A stretch of DNA of 64,000 nucleotides from a virus (Duplodnaviria; Caudoviricetes). The stretch lies in the IMG/VR virus record IMGVR_UViG_2609460327_000001, positions 1 through 64,000 of that record; one strand, written 5' to 3'. Shown in pieces: positions 1 through 53,502 of this stretch. Within the stretch, counting starts at the first letter, position 1. Each line of letters starts with the position of its first letter. Below the pieces are notes generated by a model. The model was not told the DNA's origin and searched no databases. It was given only the letters and a program-made list of their open reading frames with translations. The position numbers and the translations under genes were made by a program.

Positions 1-10
1 TTTTTATTTA

Positions 11-157
11 TTAAGATCCCCAGCCGAAAGCAAGAGGCCTAACTAGTGTATCCTCTTTATATACAACTGGTTCCACACATTCTGCAGCGCTTGCAGCGCC
101 TGCAGTTGCGCTAAGAACCCCTAATGTTAGCAATGCTGATAGAAACAACTTTTTCAT
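11..157 (-). CDS. Secreted signalling propeptide, 48 aa (AloP/AimP-like): MKKLFLSALLTLGVLSATAGAASAAECVEPVVYKEDTLVRPLAFGWGS
   Basis: Translated by hand (below ORF-track cut-off); GGGAG RBS; Sec signal with A-S-A cleavage site; Gly-containing C-terminus AFGWGS; overlaps the 3' end of the receptor gene. Confidence 0.8.
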   Translation of the reverse strand: MKKLFLSALLTLGVLSATAGAASAAECVEPVVYKEDTLVRPLAFGWGS

Positions 158-944
158 GCCTAATCGCTCCCTTTATTATGCGGTTAAATGCCTTCTCTTG
201 ACGACTGTCTGCGTGATCTTTGAGGGTTTCAAAAAGATGAACACATTCCTCAAAGTCTGCTACGTTCTTCATTTTATCAGCTAATGAGAGTGCGCGCAAG
301 AGGTTTTCTAAACAAAAATGTAACTCATTACATTTTTGTTTGTAAAGGGACAATTGACGGAAATATCTGTACTGATAGGACATATTCACTACACCAAGTG
401 TCTTATCATTTTTCCAGAAATCTTCGGGTATACGATCTAACACATGATCAATATTCATACTGTTCATGTTTGCAGCTTCAAGCATTGTGACCAAGCCAGC
501 TAAGGCTTCTTCAGGATTCTCTAATATATAATCAGCAATTCGATCTAGCGCTTCTTCTTTTCCCATAAGTAGCTCTGCCGCGATCACATTAATCTCAGAA
601 AGTTTTGTCCAGTGGTTTATCCATTTTATATCTTCTGCAGTAGGAGATATAATGGATGACCAATCACTATATTTAAGTGCCCATTCTCTGGCTTTCGGGT
701 AATCGCATTTATACTCATAGACTGTTCCAATGGCCATATAAGCAAAACCATAATAATAAACTAGACTTCTCTCTGCTTGATTAAAATTAACACCAGTCAT
801 TTTTGTAATATTATCAATAACATTAGTTTTCTCTATAAGCGATTCAGCTAAAAGTAGGATTTTATCCCAGTCACCGAAAGAAAAAGTATTCTTTAGCTTG
901 CTTATAAGAGAATCCAAATCACTGGCATCAATATTCTTAATCAT
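111..944 (-). CDS. RRNPP-family TPR peptide receptor (AloR/AimR-like), no N-terminal HTH
   Basis: Helical TPR-like sequence with ERSLVYYYGFAY...YSDWS motif as in Paenibacillus RRNPP proteins; adjacent propeptide; ATG 944 has a GAGGGGAG RBS (ORF open to 971). Confidence 0.7.
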   Translation of the reverse strand: MIKNIDASDLDSLISKLKNTFSFGDWDKILLLAESLIEKTNVIDNITKMTGVNFNQAERSLVYYYGFAYMAIGTVYEYKCDYPKAREWALKYSDWSSIISPTAEDIKWINHWTKLSEINVIAAELLMGKEEALDRIADYILENPEEALAGLVTMLEAANMNSMNIDHVLDRIPEDFWKNDKTLGVVNMSYQYRYFRQLSLYKQKCNELHFCLENLLRALSLADKMKNVADFEECVHLFETLKDHADSRQEKAFNRIIKGAIRHEKVVSISIANIRGS

Positions 945-1007
945 TTCTAATCTCCCCTCGTCAATTCTCAACAGTAAGAATAAAACTATTTTTCTGAAAT
1001 GGCAAGA

Positions 1008-1241
1008 TTATTTTTTCACAATATCGGTAAGATTGGTACGAATTAGTACAGAATAATCATTTGGCTCATCAAGTAATACCTGAATGGGAAAATATTCATT
1101 TTTAAAAAGAGTCTTTTGATCTATATAATTTACATATCCAAATTGTTCGATTGAGGGTATTAAGACCCGATCTCCTAACTTGGGAAAGTAGACCTCCGGC
1201 TTATTATTTTGTTGATCAGCAAAATCAAAAAGATCCATCAA
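1008..1241 (-). CDS. Hypothetical protein (SH3/KOW-like)
   Basis: AAGGAG RBS; LGDRVLI..FGYV pattern. Confidence 0.65.
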   Translation of the reverse strand: MMDLFDFADQQNNKPEVYFPKLGDRVLIPSIEQFGYVNYIDQKTLFKNEYFPIQVLLDEPNDYSVLIRTNLTDIVKK

Positions 1242-1289
1242 CTCAGCTCCTTCAATATAAAAAAAGCCGACTTATTTGGCGGCTTCATC

Positions 1290-1577
1290 TTAAGATATAA
1301 TCGAGCGAACCATCCGTTGCTCTTTTATGAATACGGGGTCTACCACTGGACGGAAGAAAACTCCACAAAAGCGACAGACGATTTGACTATTTAGAAATAC
1401 AATACCATCTTGCGAAACGGCAATATTATCTTCATCGTGATCGCATACTGGACAAGGTATACGAAAACTATGGACTTCCGTCAATTCGTTAATACCCATA
1501 TCGGGAATCCGTGTTTGCCTGGATGATTTATATGTGGCTAATTTTCCATTACGTAGCCTAATCTCAGGCTTACTCAT
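1290..1577 (-). CDS. Zinc-ribbon hypothetical protein
   Basis: CPVC...CRFC; GGGGG RBS. Confidence 0.7.
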   Translation of the reverse strand: MSKPEIRLRNGKLATYKSSRQTRIPDMGINELTEVHSFRIPCPVCDHDEDNIAVSQDGIVFLNSQIVCRFCGVFFRPVVDPVFIKEQRMVRSIIS

Positions 1578-1594
1578 TGGACGCCCCCTTTAAA

Positions 1595-1810
1595 CTATGT
1601 ACGCCGGTCTTTACCGCTTACCCGACTGCAGATCACCTGTGAGCCTCGGAAAGTTTTCGTTAGGGATATTAAGCCTTGGCCTTTCGGCATATAGGATTTA
1701 AAGATAGTCTTCAGACACCCAAGTACTCGATGCCTGAAGATCCTACCTGAAATTGATAGTAAGCTCTACCCTCGTCCAATCCATTGAGGCTTAATCTGCC
1801 CCACAAAATT
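1595..1810 (-). ncRNA. Candidate structured RNA (about 215 nt)
   Basis: No ORF; nested stems ATTAAGCCT/AGGCTTAAT, TAGGAT/ATCCTA, TCTTCAGGCATC/GGTGTCTGAAGA, GCC-GAAA-GGC. Confidence 0.45.
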
Positions 1811-1813
1811 CTC

Positions 1814-2039
1814 CATTTAACATACAAGCTGCAGGTCTTTAAGCATTTAAGATGAAAGGTGTTTTCACGATCATGAACTTTACTGTTCAAGCATCCACCC
1901 GATCCGATAAACGGAAACTTAAAGCAACCGATTCGAGAATCCTACCCTGCACATTGGCACTTGTTTCACCTGATCCTGTGAGAATTGAACGCTAAGAAGG
2001 TTCAAAGCTGATCTACGGTCTTTACTTGTATGTTAAATG
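1814..2039 (-). ncRNA. Candidate structured RNA closed by a perfect 15-bp terminal stem
   Basis: 1814-1828 CATTTAACATACAAG is the exact reverse complement of 2025-2039. Confidence 0.55.
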
Positions 2040-2043
2040 CAGA

Positions 2044-2118
2044 AGCCGGAAACGGGAATCGAACCTCTGATCTCTCGTATGGGTTTATACGATCGCTCTA
2101 CCGTTAAGCTATTCCGGA
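2044..2118 (-). tRNA. Degenerate tRNA-like gene with an abnormal anticodon arm (undetermined isotype)
   Basis: CCGGAA/TTCCGG acceptor, TAGCTT-AACGGTA-GAGC D arm, GGTTCGATTCC T loop; 6-bp anticodon stem with 6-nt loop AAACCC; T stem mismatched. Confidence 0.55.
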
Positions 2119-2124
2119 CACAAT

Positions 2125-2369
2125 CTATGTAGCGCACTGAAAGTCACCAAGGTCTCTGCGTTTCGTGTGACTTACTGCTGTCGCAAAGCAAGGGATGCAA
2201 ACGGAGCCGAAACACTCCAGCTTATGATGCCGGCAAGCCACGCGTTGCCGGTCATTTAAGCTGCCCGTTTCTAATCCACTGTTTATCCTATCAGATTCGA
2301 TACAAGACCAGTCTACCCGCCTCAGCGTGGCTTACGGAACCGGACAAGATCATCAGTGCGCCTACATAG
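2125..2369 (-). ncRNA. Candidate multi-branched RNA (about 245 nt)
   Basis: 16-bp terminal stem 2125-2140/2353-2369 (1 bulge); internal hairpins at 2141-2173 and 2218-2263. Confidence 0.6.
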
Positions 2370-2393
2370 CTAAATAAGTGAATCATACTGTAA

Positions 2394-2465
2394 CGCCACC
2401 ACATCGGAATCGAACCGCATTTCATGATTATCAGTCATGTGCTTTCCCTGATAAGCTATCATGGC
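2394..2465 (-). tRNA. tRNA-Ile(GAT)-like, degenerate
   Basis: GCCATGA-TA-GCTT..AAGC-A-CATGA-CT-GAT-AA-TCATG..GGTTCGATTCC..TGGTGGC; perfect anticodon arm, imperfect T stem, no encoded CCA. Confidence 0.7.
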
Positions 2466-2471
2466 AGACTC

Positions 2472-2895
2472 ACATACAGTATGATCATGACAACCCTCAT
2501 CCACCCCTAGGTTGTCGCGGAGGGCCCACCTGTTGCCTCTCTTCATCGCCTTTTGTTACAGGTTCGGTCCTGGCTGTTGTTTACGTCAGTTTTTGCATAC
2601 TGCCGTCTGTTTTTTGAATAGTCCATCCAGGATACCGTCCTCAGTGTTCGGCTCTGCAGCGCCTACAAACCTACTAACGAATAACTCCAGACTTCCTACG
2701 GCTGAATCAGATAACCTACCCTTTATAATTCTTTGATGAGGGGAAAAAAAGGGTGAATAAAAGACCCTCAATCGACATACGATCCAGCATACTTGCTCAT
2801 TTAACAGCTTCCCATAAGTTCCGCTGACTGCCAAAGCCAAATAGATCGAATCCGTTTATCTTCGGATGCTCTGCGTAAAGACGCGGATCATATGT
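2472..2895 (-). ncRNA. Candidate large structured RNA (about 420 nt)
   Basis: No credible ORF; terminal ATGATC/GATCAT pairing; several internal hairpins (2488-2517, 2565-2637, 2850-2886). Confidence 0.4.
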
Positions 2896-2906
2896 CCATT
2901 GAGAGC

Positions 2907-3020
2907 AAGAATGTGGGCAAGGGCCACTCTCCCTTGCACTGACTAGGTTATGCTTGTATTTACAGGCACGCGGTCCTCATCTTACCGCTATTAGCGTCTC
3001 TCTTCCGCCACCACATTCTT
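2907..3020 (-). ncRNA. tRNA-mimic RNA (Leu-type D arm, non-canonical T arm, expanded centre)
   Basis: 10-bp terminal stem AAGAATGTGG/CCACATTCTT; TGGCGGAA..GACGC D-arm word; 7-bp stem plus 7-nt loop GCAAGGG-AGAGTGG-CCCTTGC. Confidence 0.55.
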
Positions 3021-3023
3021 ATA

Positions 3024-3266
3024 TCATGCATCAAATTGCTTTGTTGCAATATTGGATTGTAAAAATGAATTAAAGACTGCATTCTTCGTTTCACGGAGCC
3101 AGCGTATATAAGCCACATTGTCTGCGCCATAATAGCCAATCCGATTTATCTGTGGAACCTTTTCTTCAAACTCTTTCCAGAGCTGAATATGCTGTTCTGG
3201 AAATTCCGAAGCGAATGCATTTGTTGCAAATATTGAACGCTGAACGTCCAAGTTCATGTGCTTCAA
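3024..3266 (-). CDS. Hypothetical protein
   Basis: ORF on the coding strand, overlaps the upstream stop. Confidence 0.65.
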   Translation of the reverse strand: MKHMNLDVQRSIFATNAFASEFPEQHIQLWKEFEEKVPQINRIGYYGADNVAYIRWLRETKNAVFNSFLQSNIATKQFDA

Positions 3267-3481
3267 ATCCCTTCAAATTCAAATGCCATTTGATTCTCTT
3301 CATTATGCCAGATGTGCTGTATGCGGCCCTCTTCTACAACATAAACCTTGTTGTCGAAATCATAAGCCCCGTCAGCTGCCTGAACACTATCACCCGAATT
3401 ATATCCGGTGAAATTAAAAAAAGGAATCACACTGCCTGCTGGTTTCATTGCATACATATCTTCAACTGTCATTGCTGTCAT
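3263..3481 (-). CDS. Hypothetical protein
   Basis: ATG 3481 with GGGGG RBS, downstream of a promoter. Confidence 0.65.
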   Translation of the reverse strand: MTAMTVEDMYAMKPAGSVIPFFNFTGYNSGDSVQAADGAYDFDNKVYVVEEGRIQHIWHNEENQMAFEFEGI

Positions 3482-3510
3482 CGTTATTAGCCCCCTATTT
3501 AGTGTGAGCT

Positions 3511-3558
3511 TGTAACGCATTACATTTTGAATTATAACACGTTACAAGCTAAAATCAA
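3511..3558 (-). promoter_or_regulatory. Sigma-A-like promoter with two 14-bp palindromic operators
   Basis: TTGATT-16-TATAAT with extended -10 TG; operators at 3511-3524 and 3533-3546. Confidence 0.65.
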
Positions 3559-3580
3559 GCGTTATTTTGAGATAAATTGA

Positions 3581-4918
3581 TTAAGCTGCCCCTTCTTGGC
3601 TTTCAGTATCCTCAGAGGCCTGCTCAGCGTATCCATCTGCACGATCAGCAAAAGGATCTCCCTCTCCATCGCTATAGTCAGGCATGAAGTTTTCGATTCC
3701 TGTGGAACTATCAAGTCTATGCTTCACAGGCACAACGACATTTACATTCCCTTCAAGCGCATTGGTTTCTCTTAAGAGGAAAGGCAGACCTGTCGTAATC
3801 TTAATTTCCACATGAGCGGTTCCGCTAATCTTGTTCAAAGACTCAAGCAGATAGCGGCCATTCATTGTGGATGTAGCAAATTCACCTTCGCCTTTAAGTG
3901 TTGTCATATCTTCCAACATTGTACCTTCATCACTATCCAATGATTGAATACGCATCTGGTTCTTTTCACCATCAATCATGAGCGTTATTTTAGAAGAACC
4001 AGAGTCATCTAAGAAGATGGCTGCTCGCTTGACCGCACCTAAAAACTCGGAATTAGGAACCGTAACACTAGCCTTAGCTCCAGTAGGAATAATTCGATTT
4101 GTATCAGGATATGTGCCTTCTAATACTTGAGAATAAAGAACAGTATCGTTCATGTCATATATCACACGAGTATCTTTGACGGTAACTTTGATAGTGTCCG
4201 ACTTCTTTTCCTTTAGATGCTTCATAACCTCATTGATTGTTATTGCTGGAACACTGACACGCATTGGTTCGCATTCAATAGCTGTCGGGTGATAAACCTG
4301 TGCGAATCGATGCCGATCCGTTGCAACGCAGCGAAATCTTTGGTCTTCGATGTCATGCAAGACGCCTTGCAAGACAGGCATGCTCTGCAATTTAGAAGTT
4401 GCAAACACTGTGCGGCTGTACATATCCAGAAGGGCGTCAGCAGCGATTTCGAAAGTATTGCCTTTCTTGATCTTAGGCAATGCTGGAAACTCGTCTGAAT
4501 CTTGGATTCCAATATCCATATTGGCACGACCTGATTTGATCCGGATGTGGCTATCTCGAATAAAGATGGTCGTGTTCTTCCCGCTCATTTTACTGATAAT
4601 ATCCAGAAAACGCTTTGCTGGAAACAAAACGGATCTAGGATCATCTTCAATCACGCAATGCGCCGGATCAATTGTTGTCTCTACAGAATAGCTGTCGTTT
4701 TCAGCTCGTAAGATAACTTCATTATTGGTAATAGCAAAGAATATGTTGCGCAATACAAGGTTCGCATGGTTGTGGTTTACAATCGATGCCGCTCGCTTCA
4801 CTGCTTTTAAGAGCTCAGCCGTTTTAATTGTGATTTTTCTTACTTTATTTGCATCATCGGCCAGCTGCAGGTCAACCTTCTTATCTAATTCAATATCATG
4901 TGTAAGTGTCATAGTCAT
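3581..4918 (-). CDS. dnaN: DNA polymerase III beta sliding clamp
   Basis: DEFPALP, VATDRHR, LEGTYPD and NGRYLLE motifs; extra acidic C-terminal tail. Confidence 0.9.
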   Translation of the reverse strand: MTMTLTHDIELDKKVDLQLADDANKVRKITIKTAELLKAVKRAASIVNHNHANLVLRNIFFAITNNEVILRAENDSYSVETTIDPAHCVIEDDPRSVLFPAKRFLDIISKMSGKNTTIFIRDSHIRIKSGRANMDIGIQDSDEFPALPKIKKGNTFEIAADALLDMYSRTVFATSKLQSMPVLQGVLHDIEDQRFRCVATDRHRFAQVYHPTAIECEPMRVSVPAITINEVMKHLKEKKSDTIKVTVKDTRVIYDMNDTVLYSQVLEGTYPDTNRIIPTGAKASVTVPNSEFLGAVKRAAIFLDDSGSSKITLMIDGEKNQMRIQSLDSDEGTMLEDMTTLKGEGEFATSTMNGRYLLESLNKISGTAHVEIKITTGLPFLLRETNALEGNVNVVVPVKHRLDSSTGIENFMPDYSDGEGDPFADRADGYAEQASEDTESQEGAA

Positions 4919-4953
4919 TTTCAAGCCTCCGTTAATTTATTTTCCGTTAAATC

Positions 4954-4983
4954 CAAAAAGCCCCTGCCGTCGTAAGACGGCCT
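4954..4983 (-). repeat. Hairpin-box junction element, copy 1
   Basis: GCCGTC-TTAC-GACGGC-AGGGGCTTTTTG. Confidence 0.75.
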
Positions 4984-5289
4984 CTACCCAATGATGTTTG
5001 TTAGAATACCGAACGGAGAAACATGTTTAATGGCTCCTGCGGGAATTTTTGCTCCTTCTTGTAGAAGCATTTCTTCAAAAGCAGAAAGCATGCCTTCATT
5101 AACACGCTCGCTCATTGCAATTTCGCTACGCATAAAACCAAACAGGGAGAAGTCATCAGACACTGCCGAAAATGGAACAAAACCTTCGTTTTGACCATAT
5201 GGGAATGTATCAATTAGATTTTGAAGCTGATCTTGAGAAATCACTGCTTGTTTTTCTAGTTTTTGTACTACCAATTCAGGGTTAGACAT
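4984..5289 (-). CDS. Hypothetical protein
   Basis: GGAGG RBS. Confidence 0.7.
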   Translation of the reverse strand: MSNPELVVQKLEKQAVISQDQLQNLIDTFPYGQNEGFVPFSAVSDDFSLFGFMRSEIAMSERVNEGMLSAFEEMLLQEGAKIPAGAIKHVSPFGILTNIIG

Positions 5290-5321
5290 AATAAAATTCC
5301 TCCAATAAGTTAGTTTGTTTA

Positions 5322-6215
5322 TTATACAGGGGCAGTTGCCCAGTCTAAGTCAAATGCAAGTTGCCCTTCAAGAACTTTCTTGCCAGGTGTTGCAGGAACA
5401 AGAGAAATCGTTTTGCTTTGCTCAAAGCCCTTAAGCCATTGTGGATGGAAGGCATACCATGGAGCATACCAGTACGTCTGAATCTTGCAGAGCTTCACGG
5501 CGATCTGGCTGATATCTTGGGCAATCATTCGAAGAGTATGGTTTGATGCTGGAAGTATAGTAGCTCCGCATCCCACGCAGCCATCGTATACAGTCTGGCG
5601 TTTTTCCTCTTCAGGATCTCCACCCATCGTCATTTGTGTCATCATACACGTTATATTGAATGGCGTAGGAAAGTAGCCTAATCCAGACTTATATCCTTTA
5701 CCAGTTTCTTCTGAGAGCGTGTGAGACAAGTAATCGGTCGGATAATTTTGAACTAAAAATATATCGAACTCTCGATAGTAATGCTCATTCAGTTCAGGTG
5801 ATATCTTGAGCGTTTGATTTTCCGGTGAAGCCGCCAGCCCCCACATAAGCCAATCTGCAAAGTGATCGATCGTTGATTCGTGATGATCAAGGCATTTGCG
5901 CAGCATCTTTTGAGTTTCTTCGACACCTTCTCCACCTCGTTCTTTCCATTCAATTTGAGGGATCGGTCCGCTACCTTTGATCGTTTTCTTCTGCAATATC
6001 TCATGCCAGTAGTTCCATCTACCCCAAAGCAAATCATCATAGGAGAATAGGAATGGCAAAAGCCACCCCCTCTTCTCAAATACTTCCGAATGATTACTTG
6101 GAAGACCGCTTATCGCCTTGGCATATTCATAAATGCTAGATTGCATTTTCATGAGCTGCTCCGGAAGAAAACGATCAATTTGATATAGGTCCTGGCGCTT
6201 CTTGGCTTTTGCCAT
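5322..6215 (-). CDS. N6-adenine DNA methyltransferase-like protein (SAM-binding half only)
   Basis: GYFPTP and YDGCVGCG motifs; no NPPY/F. Confidence 0.7.
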   Translation of the reverse strand: MAKAKKRQDLYQIDRFLPEQLMKMQSSIYEYAKAISGLPSNHSEVFEKRGWLLPFLFSYDDLLWGRWNYWHEILQKKTIKGSGPIPQIEWKERGGEGVEETQKMLRKCLDHHESTIDHFADWLMWGLAASPENQTLKISPELNEHYYREFDIFLVQNYPTDYLSHTLSEETGKGYKSGLGYFPTPFNITCMMTQMTMGGDPEEEKRQTVYDGCVGCGATILPASNHTLRMIAQDISQIAVKLCKIQTYWYAPWYAFHPQWLKGFEQSKTISLVPATPGKKVLEGQLAFDLDWATAPV

Positions 6216-51674: not shown

Positions 51675-51974
51675 TTAGGAGTGAGCAGTCTCTAATGACA
51701 GCACCTCCTCTACTTTATTTTCGAGAGCCTGGCGATCACGGGAATAGAAAGTATACTTCCCTTTCACGAAAGGCTTAGGGCCTTCCTCGATAATGATATC
51801 TCCTTTACTCCGAGTAGCGACAACCAAAGCAAAGTTATTCTGAATAGGCTTCATAAAATATCTGATGATCTGTTTATTATCCATGATATGACACTCCTTT
51901 AAATATAGTATGGTACTGCTATACTCCCGAGTTGGGAGCCCGCGCTTGGCCAAAAGCCTATTTATAGTCGCCAA
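51675..51974 (-). CDS. Hypothetical protein
   Basis: ORF; true start probably the internal MDNKQ. Confidence 0.55.
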   Translation of the reverse strand: MATINRLLAKRGLPTREYSSTILYLKECHIMDNKQIIRYFMKPIQNNFALVVATRSKGDIIIEEGPKPFVKGKYTFYSRDRQALENKVEEVLSLETAHS

Positions 51975-51980
51975 GCCGAC

Positions 51981-52232
51981 TTAGAAAAAGAGGGATGCTG
52001 ATTGTCTGATGCATTCTTGTTTGAGATGCTGATTTTTGACAAATAAGTCAACGAGCATTAATTTGAGTGCGCTTTCAGGAATATCTTTGATCTGTTCGGA
52101 CACCCAATGAGTAAGCAAATTACTTTCAGTTTCGATATCAAATGAAGCATTCTCGATATAAGCGGACATATTATCAAGGTATTGTTTGGCTTGATCATCG
52201 GTCATTTTCTCTTGTGCGACAGCAGTTAACAT
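51981..52232 (-). CDS. Hypothetical protein
   Basis: GGAG RBS. Confidence 0.65.
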   Translation of the reverse strand: MLTAVAQEKMTDDQAKQYLDNMSAYIENASFDIETESNLLTHWVSEQIKDIPESALKLMLVDLFVKNQHLKQECIRQSASLFF

Positions 52233-52233
52233 T

Positions 52234-52506
52234 TTATTCGCTCCAATCTATTTGAGTTTGATATGCTTCTAAAGCTTGTTGTCGATACCAGTCGGCTGCT
52301 TTAAAGCTGATCGGCATCGGACGATAAATCTTGATGTTTAGTTCAGCACACTTTTGTTCGATCTCACCTAGGATTTGACGGCATTCGTCATCCTTATCTT
52401 GAAGATAGAATGTATCAGCTCTGATTAAATCAATACTGAGCTGGGCGGGGAGAGGGGTGCGCTGTAAACAATAGATGTGATCATCTAAGCTAGTGTAATT
52501 AAACAT
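52234..52506 (-). CDS. Hypothetical protein
   Basis: AAGGAG RBS before ATG 52506. Confidence 0.65.
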   Translation of the reverse strand: MFNYTSLDDHIYCLQRTPLPAQLSIDLIRADTFYLQDKDDECRQILGEIEQKCAELNIKIYRPMPISFKAADWYRQQALEAYQTQIDWSE

Positions 52507-52517
52507 AATTAGTCTCC

Positions 52518-52664
52518 TTAGAAAGGGACGCATTCTAAACAGAAATGGTCATCTATGCATCCACATGGTTTGTATGTATGAATGTCTTGCTCATAGCCAG
52601 TCGGATCGAAATCCCAGTGCATCTGCTGGAACTCCGGATCGTCGAAAATAAATACATTTTTCAT
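52518..52664 (-). CDS. 48-aa acidic Cys-rich peptide
   Basis: Translated by hand; AGGAGG RBS; CGC..H.CLEC. Confidence 0.55.
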   Translation of the reverse strand: MKNVFIFDDPEFQQMHWDFDPTGYEQDIHTYKPCGCIDDHFCLECVPF

Positions 52665-52715
52665 AAGTCTTCCTCCTAATAAAAAAGCCCGCTCCATTAA
52701 GGAACAGGCTTAGGT

Positions 52716-52952
52716 TTAATTTGTGGTTGATTCTAACTCGTTATAGTATTCATCAAACTCGTATTCAAACTTTCGATCTATTACTGTGCCTTCTTCATTA
52801 AAAACAACTAGCATAGGAACTCCGAGAAGATACTCGCGAATTTCAAAATCGAGTCCTCGCTGATAAAGCTCGCCACCTATCATACCAAGTATTAAATCGT
52901 AGGCGTTATTTATTCTTTCAATTTCCTTCTGAATCTTAGGATCTTTTGGCAT
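52716..52952 (-). CDS. Hypothetical protein
   Basis: AAGGAGG RBS, followed by a terminator. Confidence 0.7.
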   Translation of the reverse strand: MPKDPKIQKEIERINNAYDLILGMIGGELYQRGLDFEIREYLLGVPMLVVFNEEGTVIDRKFEYEFDEYYNELESTTN

Positions 52953-53425: not shown

Positions 53426-53502
53426 TCATATTCTGTTTCGCTGCTAGTACAGCTCATCAGTACGGTTTGATTACCGCAGACAGAATAGGGGAGAGGCCCC
53501 CC

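Follow-up and report, generated by a model that had tools for sequence, protein, structure and literature searches.

We analyzed a stretch of about 1.4 kb (positions 1,595 to 3,020) in the virus record IMGVR_UViG_2609460327_000001 of IMG/VR. The window, by which we mean the whole stretch of DNA that was studied, comprises the first 64,000 nucleotides (64 kb) of this 206,307-bp record, which has a CheckV rating of complete; its long open reading frames (ORFs) are almost all on the minus strand. A sliding clamp gene (dnaN) at 3581-4924, identified as a processivity factor in PHROG (E value 1e-61), lies directly upstream of the stretch, and a large helicase gene lies further upstream of the clamp. 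The stretch itself carries a genuine and conserved set of new structured RNAs, five or six modules closed by stems, along with two crippled tRNA-like elements; its carriers belong to a rare phage-plasmid lineage. We named the RNA modules M0 to M4 and the less canonical of the two tRNA-like elements tX. In minus-strand order, the locus contains the following features.

3509-3558, minus strand: sigma-70-type promoter (TTGATT, 16 nt, TATAAT with TG; 3558-3531) and candidate operator, a palindrome that overlaps it, with arms at 3509-3517 and 3540-3548.
3263-3520 and 3024-3266, minus strand: ORF85 (85 aa) and ORF80 (80 aa), which open the operon; no Pfam match.
2907-3020, minus strand: M0, a multi-hairpin module with a closing stem of 10-11 bp and a conserved 3' hairpin; folding z-score -2.84.
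2764-2906, minus strand: M1a, 143 nt with a closing stem of ~21 bp; z-scores -4.99, -6.04 and -4.88 in three genomes.
2486-2763, minus strand: M1b/c, a hairpin ACCCUUU / AAAGGGU with 2 compensatory changes, then a core with conserved sequence blocks.
2382-2485, minus strand: tRNA-Ile(GAU)-like element with flank stem; the gene (2394-2465) lies inside an 11-bp stem (2475-2485 / 2382-2392).
2125-2369, minus strand: M2, 245 nt and multi-branched, with a closing stem of 8 + 8 bp interrupted by a bulged G; z-score -3.31.
2044-2118, minus strand: tX, tRNA-like and predicted to be non-decoding; 31.7 bits in Rfam.
1811-2042, minus strand: M3, ~230 nt with a closing stem of 16-18 bp that includes a conserved G.U pair, a variable hairpin P2 (1977-2006) and a conserved core.
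1600-1805, minus strand: M4, ~200 nt: closing helix of 14 bp (6-nt bulge), second helix of 14 bp (AA bulge), hairpin of 19 bp, invariant GAAA hairpin, 3' hairpin.
1290-1577, minus strand: ORF95, 95 aa, zinc-ribbon-like; 75% amino-acid identity to its counterpart in the related contig L004 introduced below.
~1257-1286, minus strand: terminator-like hairpin with a U run, found by eye; its 10-nt loop is beyond the limit of the terminator scanner.

Three relatives have a cluster in the corresponding position, preceded by dnaN, a promoter of the operator type and small ORFs. The clamp has only 2 close relatives among 5.8 billion proteins, and all remaining matches have at most 34% identity. One of the two, 88% identical, is encoded by plasmid unnamed1 of Paenibacillus urinalis (NZ_CP118109.1, 214,846 bp, circular), and the other, 60% identical, by an IMG/VR contig (L004) that has the gene order of the window (clamp, promoter, two small ORFs, RNA region). 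When positions 1500-3100 were compared with 72,556 plasmids by blastn, a single record matched, the P. urinalis plasmid, which covers the whole region in four pieces with 92.5% identity; the same query gave no match among 50,697 phage records. The fourth and most distant carrier is plasmid unnamed2 of P. rhizovicinus (NZ_CP048288.1; L019), whose clamp is 31% identical and whose layout is the same. It has homologs of the 80-aa ORF and of a 90-aa ORF of L004, followed by a 1.33-kb annotation-free gap, at the end of which stand a tRNA-like element and a clean terminator.

Genes for a major capsid protein, a terminase and ParM are present on the P. urinalis plasmid, and the element is therefore a ~206-kb jumbo phage-plasmid of Paenibacillus. 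Bacillus plasmids of ~200 kb retain the clamp and the 80-aa ORF, with small ORFs replacing the RNA stretch, and the cluster is accordingly a feature of the Paenibacillus branch, with four genomes of one phage-plasmid lineage carrying it. Searching IMG/VR with the clamp and ORF95 proteins and with five DNA patterns retrieved only L004, plus two chance matches (L015 and L016), which are located inside a coding region. Two scans of JGI metagenomes gave no further homolog of the cluster, and a match from a genome-contig scan was the clamp of an unrelated candidate phylum and not a relative. As separate observations, two of the Bacillus plasmids, those of Bacillus licheniformis (L021) and B. halotolerans (L022), carry genes for flagellin (hag) and a carbon storage regulator a few kb downstream of the clamp/80-aa-ORF module; in L004, a 224-aa ORF with a C-terminal CxxC...CxxC motif and the 90-aa ORF sit between RNA modules (2838-3512 and 3663-3935) and have no Pfam match; and the homolog of the 90-aa ORF in L019 (7873-8172) stands directly before the RNA gap.

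An earlier reading of the DNA, made from the sequence alone (the sequence-only reading), had described positions 1595-3020 as free of credible ORFs, and our analysis bears this out. The longest frames have 84 aa (2586-2840, minus strand), 79 aa and 74 aa. At a cut-off of 70 aa, positions 1578-2377 form the largest of the three ORF-free gaps of at least 350 nt in the whole 206,307-bp genome. In a comparison with a 92-95% identical relative, 8 indels that disrupt the reading frame fall at 1807-2580, whereas the coding sequence on either side is free of them; one more indel, the ninth, is at 3500, a short way upstream of the start of ORF85. The PGAP annotation has no coding sequence in the homologous 1.6 kb of NZ_CP118109.1. 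We set aside the idea of an alternative genetic code, as the flanking genes all read normally under table 11.

The GC content of the stretch is 0.42-0.50 vs ~0.40 in the surroundings, and it contains 3 perfect inverted repeats (arms of at least 10, loops of 40-450) vs a genome mean of 0.57 per window of equal length. At least 3 such repeats occur in 19 of 1025 windows, so the stretch is enriched in them and not unique; positions 5801-6215, which lie inside a 297-aa ORF, and 52001-52801 match the cluster in this respect. The long terminal stems by which the sequence-only reading had delimited the modules are all present: a perfect pair of 15 bp in M3 (1814-1828 / 2025-2039), which ties for the longest perfect inverted repeat in the genome at loops of 40-450, a perfect pair of 10 bp in M0 (2907-2916 / 3011-3020), which is retained in L004, and the 8 + 8 bp around the bulged G in M2. 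Folding z-scores were -5.0 for M1a, -3.3 for M2, -2.8 for M0, -2.7 for M3 and -1.6 to -1.7 for M4, and -0.8 for positions 2466-2906 as a whole.

We compared the locus with Rfam 15 (4227 families), using a permissive scan of positions 1300-3700 at E<=10 and a scan at gathering scores. As the sequence-only reading had anticipated for a novel cluster, only two tRNAs exceeded the gathering score and no other family did. The permissive scan gave 6 matches, of which 2 were these tRNAs, and the other 4 scored 12.6-21.8 bits vs gathering scores of 36-100. Within the clusters of the relatives (L003, L004 and L019), Rfam likewise shows only tRNA. The cluster therefore holds structured RNAs that are new to Rfam, the collection against which we judged novelty; the literature that we covered concerned the large phage RNAs GOLLD and ROOL, Paenibacillus phage-plasmids, the tRNA-like transcripts of a herpesvirus discussed below, and phage T4. 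Neither the GOLLD nor the ROOL model matched at E<=10, which leaves only a likeness of context to these RNAs. A group I intron within a tRNA gene was rejected, there being no intron match and the modules lying between complete tRNA-like genes, not inside them.

Three elements of the cluster are more conserved than the genes around them. Between the window and L004, identity is 84.7% for the M3 core, 84.0% for M4 and 81.3% for tX, vs 56.9% for ORF85, 67.5% for ORF80, 68.1% for ORF95 and 62.4% for the clamp. For M4, RNAalifold applied to three sequences gave 59 pairs, with 4 double changes, about 9 one-sided changes compatible with G.U and one broken cell; 99.4% of the cells are paired, vs 30-44% when the partners are slid by 1-3 columns. 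Two neighbouring pairs of its closing helix (1799-1786 with 1641-1628, followed by the small 3' hairpin) each went from C-G to U-A in a separate event, the first in one of the genomes P. urinalis and L004 and the second in the other. For M3, 68 pairs with 4 double changes were found, and 97.0% of the cells are paired vs 27-40% after sliding. The M3 closing stem can be followed through 4 genomes and comprises 18 pairs, 3 of them with double changes, and a G.U pair kept in 3 of the 4. The covariation scores were reached by 8 of 500 shuffles (M4) and 6 of 500 (M3), figures that are not to be read as probabilities, and we regard the slid controls and the contrast in conservation as the firmer evidence. 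Signs of a structured noncoding RNA under selection were found for M3, M4, tX and the M3 closing stem, and not for M1b/c.

Several features assign these structures to the minus strand. The conserved G.U pairs and the one-sided changes to G.U fit this strand only, since they become A.C mismatches on the plus strand. The fold energy of M4 is -63.4 kcal/mol on the minus strand vs -45.0 kcal/mol on the plus strand; M2 and M3 fold about equally well on both. The genes and both tRNA-like genes are all on the minus strand. The stretch is noncoding and conserved, with helices that co-vary on the minus strand and with crippled tRNA features. The structured RNAs of the sequence-only reading stand on that strand, and the homolog search that it had proposed yielded compensatory changes in M3, M4 and tX (3-4 genomes) and left M1b/c without a supported fold.

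Both tRNA-like genes score above the gathering threshold of the Rfam tRNA family (RF00005, 29 bits) over model positions 1-71, with 39.4 bits for 2394-2465 and 31.7 bits for 2044-2118. Aragorn accepts the former as tRNA-Ile with anticodon GAU, its sole call in the 206-kb genome, and does not accept the latter, tX. The 'anticodon' stem of tX has 7 bp, and its loop has 6 nt (AAACCC) in the window and in P. urinalis vs 7 nt (CAUCCAA) in L004; in each of the 3 genomes, 2 of the 5 pairs of the T stem are non-standard, and 2 of the genomes also lack pairing at the first acceptor position. Across the same three genomes the D arm and the T loop are invariant, and 3 of the 23 pairs have double changes, two in the acceptor stem and one in the 'anticodon' stem. 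Identity of tX to P. urinalis is 98.7%. The tRNA-Ile-like gene has a standard anticodon arm, and cmscan flagged several non-standard pairs in it (mismatches in the acceptor and T stems). Its anticodon is GAU in the window vs GAG in P. urinalis, the discriminator base differs as well, and at 88.9% identity to P. urinalis it is the least conserved of the retained modules; its flank stem shows one double change from U-A to G-C (by eye). The gene is absent from L004.

A functional decoder has a 5-bp anticodon stem, a 7-nt loop and a stable anticodon, and neither element has all of these: tX departs in the arm and the tRNA-Ile-like element in the anticodon. From its arm, tX is predicted to be unable to decode. 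The degeneracy that the sequence-only reading had seen in the tRNA-like genes is thus confirmed. The element that terminates the P. rhizovicinus gap folds into a cloverleaf whose anticodon loop has 5 nt and whose extra arm has 45 nt; it scores 39.3 bits in Rfam, and Aragorn calls no tRNA at this locus. The acceptor stem and the elbow formed by the D and T arms are the features that are read by RNase P, RNase Z and the CCA-adding enzyme. The tRNA-like elements appear to keep these features while the parts needed for decoding drift, which fits the idea that they serve as punctuation. A possible third tRNA-like element in L004 (3556-3641, between tX and M3) is uncertain, with no Rfam match at E<=1 and no stable cloverleaf.

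Not every module had been read correctly. Positions 2907-3020 (M0) had been taken for a tRNA mimic, a label that finds no support: we found no tRNA match at E<=10 and no T- or D-loop motif, and the interior is swapped in the sister genome. The 5' strand of the M0 closing stem (3006-3016) has an 11-nt word in common with the 3' acceptor end of the tRNA-Ile-like gene (2394-2404), by common origin or by chance. The single RNA of ~420 nt that had been proposed at 2472-2895 is composite: 2764-2906 (M1a) is a separate element, and the remainder is without a well-supported fold. The M1-core words UCGAGAGUAGGU and GGAGCUGCA occur in both L019 (8765-8789) and L004 (2563-2588) in reversed order, as a permuted motif or by chance.

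When the window is compared with P. urinalis, most modules are 94-100% identical, and three interiors are essentially unrelated. In M0 the interior (2938-2994) is 51% identical, vs 97-100% for the stem and the 3' hairpin. The interior of M1a (2774-2897) is 48% identical; this interior and most of the stem differ from a version common to P. urinalis and L004, which are near-identical to each other in this module. In M3 the P2 arm (1977-2006) is 37% identical. M1b/c is 96% identical to P. urinalis. M2 is 95.5% identical, and these are its only two full copies known; in L004 it is a short stem-closed remnant (by eye), and a closing stem similar to that of M2 is tentatively present in P. rhizovicinus. 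M3 of L004 has one hairpin lengthened and capped by UUCG. In P. rhizovicinus, an M3-type closing stem and the adjoining word AAAGACCGU are kept around a 260-nt interior that the M3-core model does not recognize. Covariance models of M4 (R1) and of the M3 core (R2) gave no match in L019-L022, and the best other match of R1 within positions 1-6000 of the window (8.8 bits) was the antisense of its own hairpin. The minus strand has 4 occurrences of a word GGGUAG, which we dropped because the relatives do not conserve it.

The closing stems resemble each other as well. Those of M1a (P. urinalis and L004) and M3 are ~73% identical in both arms (16/22 and 15-16/22), their differences are compensatory, and a G.U pair is in the same place, 8 bp from the inner end (register by eye); the bulged G of M2 is also 8 bp from the inner end of its closing stem. 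The closing stems, whose role the sequence-only reading had overlooked, are the most conserved parts of the modules; they look like a second set of punctuation marks, of the RNase III type, and such a stem surrounds the tRNA-Ile-like gene as well. The helices therefore resemble a family of sites for recognition or processing, and the interiors resemble exchangeable cargo.

The cluster lies, as the sequence-only reading had proposed, downstream of an operator-type promoter in what appears to be one transcription unit. The promoter-like site is a strong one that matches 10 of 12 positions plus the TG extension, is identical in P. urinalis and is conserved in L004. P. urinalis and L004 also conserve the palindrome, whose two arms are changed together in P. 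rhizovicinus (by eye), the pattern expected of an operator and its repressor, which makes it a candidate operator. A terminator scan of the minus strand over 1000-3800 found no terminator-like site, the hairpin at ~1257-1286 being outside the loop limit of the scanner. ORF95 has no Pfam or PHROG match and unnamed neighbours in the atlas, and its AlphaFold2 model (pLDDT 45.6) was unusable. The operon layout is conserved in the 4 genomes. Spacing within the array is tight: the end of M2 is 6 nt away from tX, and 4 nt separate tX from the start of M3 (by eye).

We propose that the cluster consists of noncoding RNA genes in an operon whose single transcript is processed into stable RNAs protected from exonucleases, the tRNA-like elements being the cut sites of RNase P and RNase Z and the long stems those of an RNase III-type enzyme; we give this reading a probability of roughly 55%. 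The primary transcript would be ~2.3 kb long, running from the promoter at 3558 to the terminator near 1260, and would comprise the two small ORFs, the RNA array and ORF95. The array would fold into the self-closed domains M0, M1a, M1b/c, M2, M3 and M4, and the two tRNA-shaped elements would be interspersed. The host enzymes RNase P and RNase Z would cut at the tRNA-shaped elements, a release of discrete RNAs that is plausible by analogy, and an RNase III-type enzyme would cut within the closing helices of 15-21 bp. The discrete RNAs set free would have roughly 115, 140, 245, 230 and 200 nt, and their paired ends would shield them from the 5' and 3' exonucleases of Bacillota, which would allow them to accumulate stably. 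M3 and M4 are constrained in sequence and would probably have a specific binding partner. The kept stems and swapped interiors of M0, M1a, M2 and arm P2 of M3 would suit rapidly evolving RNAs that act in trans, for instance as decoys or scaffolds in the conflict between phage and host. Co-transcription, the cuts, the stability of the RNAs and their action in trans are what we infer from these patterns.

A number of points weigh against this proposal. The covariation counts come from 3-4 sequences only and are hence small, and trials of the shuffling tool show that related sequences can beat most shuffles even without structure. M1b/c has no well-supported consensus fold (covariation term +1.47, with many pairs broken in L004), and M4 alone is thermodynamically unremarkable (z-score -1.6). 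Three 151-nt contigs that match inside the cluster only (2115-2316 with 52 nt skipped, 2356-2505 and 2572-2722) come from two runs guessed to be RNA, have a depth of ~2 and may be DNA, and we did not use them. A search of the phage genome for target complementarity gave none above chance, and neither a partner protein nor a homolog of known function was found for the RNAs. Cleavage of the closing stems by an RNase III-type enzyme of Paenibacillus is presumed by analogy. M3 and M4 stand directly before ORF95 in three genomes, a position that would also allow a role in cis.

Two observations adjoin the proposal. One of the contigs just mentioned, from a wastewater sample labelled RNA-Seq (151 nt, depth 2), skips 52 nt of M2 (2143-2194, three predicted hairpins) and matches exactly on both sides; the skip could be a natural deletion variant or a jump of reverse transcriptase. 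Elsewhere in the window, a Pistol ribozyme match (51917-51981, minus strand) scores 47.3 bits, above the gathering score of 34.5, and a match resembling a type III hammerhead (53430-53486, minus strand) scores 42.7 bits (E 3.3e-7), below the gathering score of 48.5. Both matches occupy short gaps that separate small ORFs of the minus strand. This suggests cuts by ribozymes in another operon of the phage-plasmid, and that the element may use RNA structure more generally to cut its operons.

A role in cis is the alternative that fares best, and we consider it unlikely. M3 and M4, or perhaps the whole cluster, would then be a long structured untranslated region that controls the translation or stability of ORF95 and insulates it from the upstream ORFs. 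M3, M4 and ORF95 are indeed contiguous in all 3 genomes that have M4, and the 3' hairpin of M4 ends ~25 nt before the start codon of ORF95. RNAalifold also pairs 6 nt before M3 with the ribosome-binding stretch, a weak signal of 6 pairs with one double change and 2 pairs broken in L004. However, the P. rhizovicinus cluster has neither M4 nor ORF95 and ends with an M3-type module, the tRNA-like element and the clean terminator, and in L004 the two ORFs inserted between modules show that the modules behave as separate units. A leader would also leave the tRNA-like elements and the five self-closed upstream domains unexplained.

We find it quite unlikely that the whole 1.4 kb forms a single ornate particle with embedded tRNAs in the manner of GOLLD or ROOL. 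GOLLD and ROOL, RNAs of phages or prophages, often lie near tRNA islands, and tRNAs are sometimes found in the GOLLD linker (10.1101/2024.12.08.627333). The cluster is contiguous, with no internal promoter or terminator, and the predicted global fold contains some pairs between modules. Against this, no large RNA of Rfam matched at E<=10, each module closes on itself, and covariation support is absent for every long-range helix. Modules have also been lost, shrunk, swapped or separated by ORFs independently among the 4 genomes.

A role at the level of DNA, with the inverted repeats acting as single-strand replication-origin hairpins near dnaN or as the ends of small mobile cassettes, is very unlikely. 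It would account for the position of the cluster beside replication genes (clamp and helicase), for ends that resemble terminal inverted repeats around replaced interiors and for the likeness of two closing stems. Yet many helices besides the terminal ones co-vary and G.U pairs are kept on the minus strand only, the GC content is raised and not AT-rich, and the tRNA-like genes are oriented as the modules are; there are no iterons, no copies elsewhere in the genome and no transposase nearby. It is highly improbable that an earlier tRNA array and its spacers decayed into the cluster and left it without function, since, despite the degenerate tRNA-like genes, the tRNA-Ile-like gene as the fastest-changing conserved module (88.9%) and the 11-nt word common to M0 and the 3' end of that gene, M3, M4 and tX are more conserved than every neighbouring gene, compensatory changes maintain the helices, and all 3 of the 3 genomes with tX conserve its very defects.

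Processing of one transcript into stable RNAs, our preferred reading, has counterparts in known systems. The tRNA cluster of phage T4 includes the stable RNAs C and D (species 1 and 2), which are co-transcribed with the tRNAs and released by host tRNA-processing enzymes. The RNAs proposed here would similarly be small stable RNAs co-transcribed with phage tRNA-like genes. Compared by description and not by sequence, they differ in being larger (115-245 nt) and more numerous, each closed by a helix of 10-21 bp, and in that the tRNAs here are crippled and the array lies between protein-coding genes of a phage-plasmid operon. Stems cut by RNase III occur in rRNA operons and in phage early mRNAs, such as the R sites of T7 and the sites of Bacillus phage SP82. 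There, too, a polycistronic transcript has tRNAs interspersed and each of its products is flanked by the arms of a long helix, and in phages the hairpin sequences recur from site to site; here, cleavage is predicted and the enclosed products are uncharacterized RNAs, not rRNA or mRNA. For the conserved G.U pair or bulged G at a distance of 8 bp from the inner stem end, we know of no counterpart among RNase III stems.

Other comparisons concern tRNA shapes. With GOLLD and ROOL (10.1101/2024.12.08.627333), the likeness is that of complex structured RNAs in phages and prophages of Bacillota near or around tRNA genes. They differ from the cluster in having one fold of 600-800 nt vs a string of self-closed domains that matches neither model at E<=10, and the cluster is known from only 4 genomes of one phage-plasmid lineage. 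Two further reports describe tRNA-like processing handles, namely the t-elements of plant mitochondria (PMC1920247) and the tRNA-miRNA-encoding RNAs (TMERs) of murine gammaherpesvirus 68 (MHV68; PMC4337559). Non-decoding tRNA shapes within longer transcripts are cut there by RNase P and RNase Z and so set where the adjacent RNAs begin or end, as proposed here; those systems are eukaryotic organellar or viral ones, whereas the cuts in the cluster are predicted and would be joined by a second type of mark, the long closing stems.

A further-reaching version of the proposal is speculative, and we hold it to be doubtful. In this version the locus would be an RNA cassette array in which related closing helices (approximately CAUUYAGCRCACRAG and its complement, with a G.U pair or bulged G 8 bp from the inner end) and crippled tRNA handles form a fixed processing frame, M3 and M4 are the constant core, and the cargos are swapped as decoys or sponges against host defence or tRNA-targeting nucleases. 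If true, such an array would be a new kind of accessory or counter-defence locus, made of RNA only and with an exchange logic of its own.

Structured RNAs of at least 200 nt with no assigned function are rare, and several of the known ones, such as GOLLD and ROOL, come from phages and lie near tRNA genes. The cluster adds at least 2 new RNA families, M3 and M4, that are held more tightly than the surrounding proteins. Two of the 4 carriers are plasmids of cultured Paenibacillus strains (NZ_CP118109.1 and NZ_CP048288.1), which makes the RNAs directly testable and is unusual for RNAs from metagenomes. Conserved stems around swapped interiors at a genome identity of 92-95% amount to a natural experiment on modular RNA evolution, and the layout, with its cut marks and end protection, suggests how a phage could make many stable RNAs from one operon.

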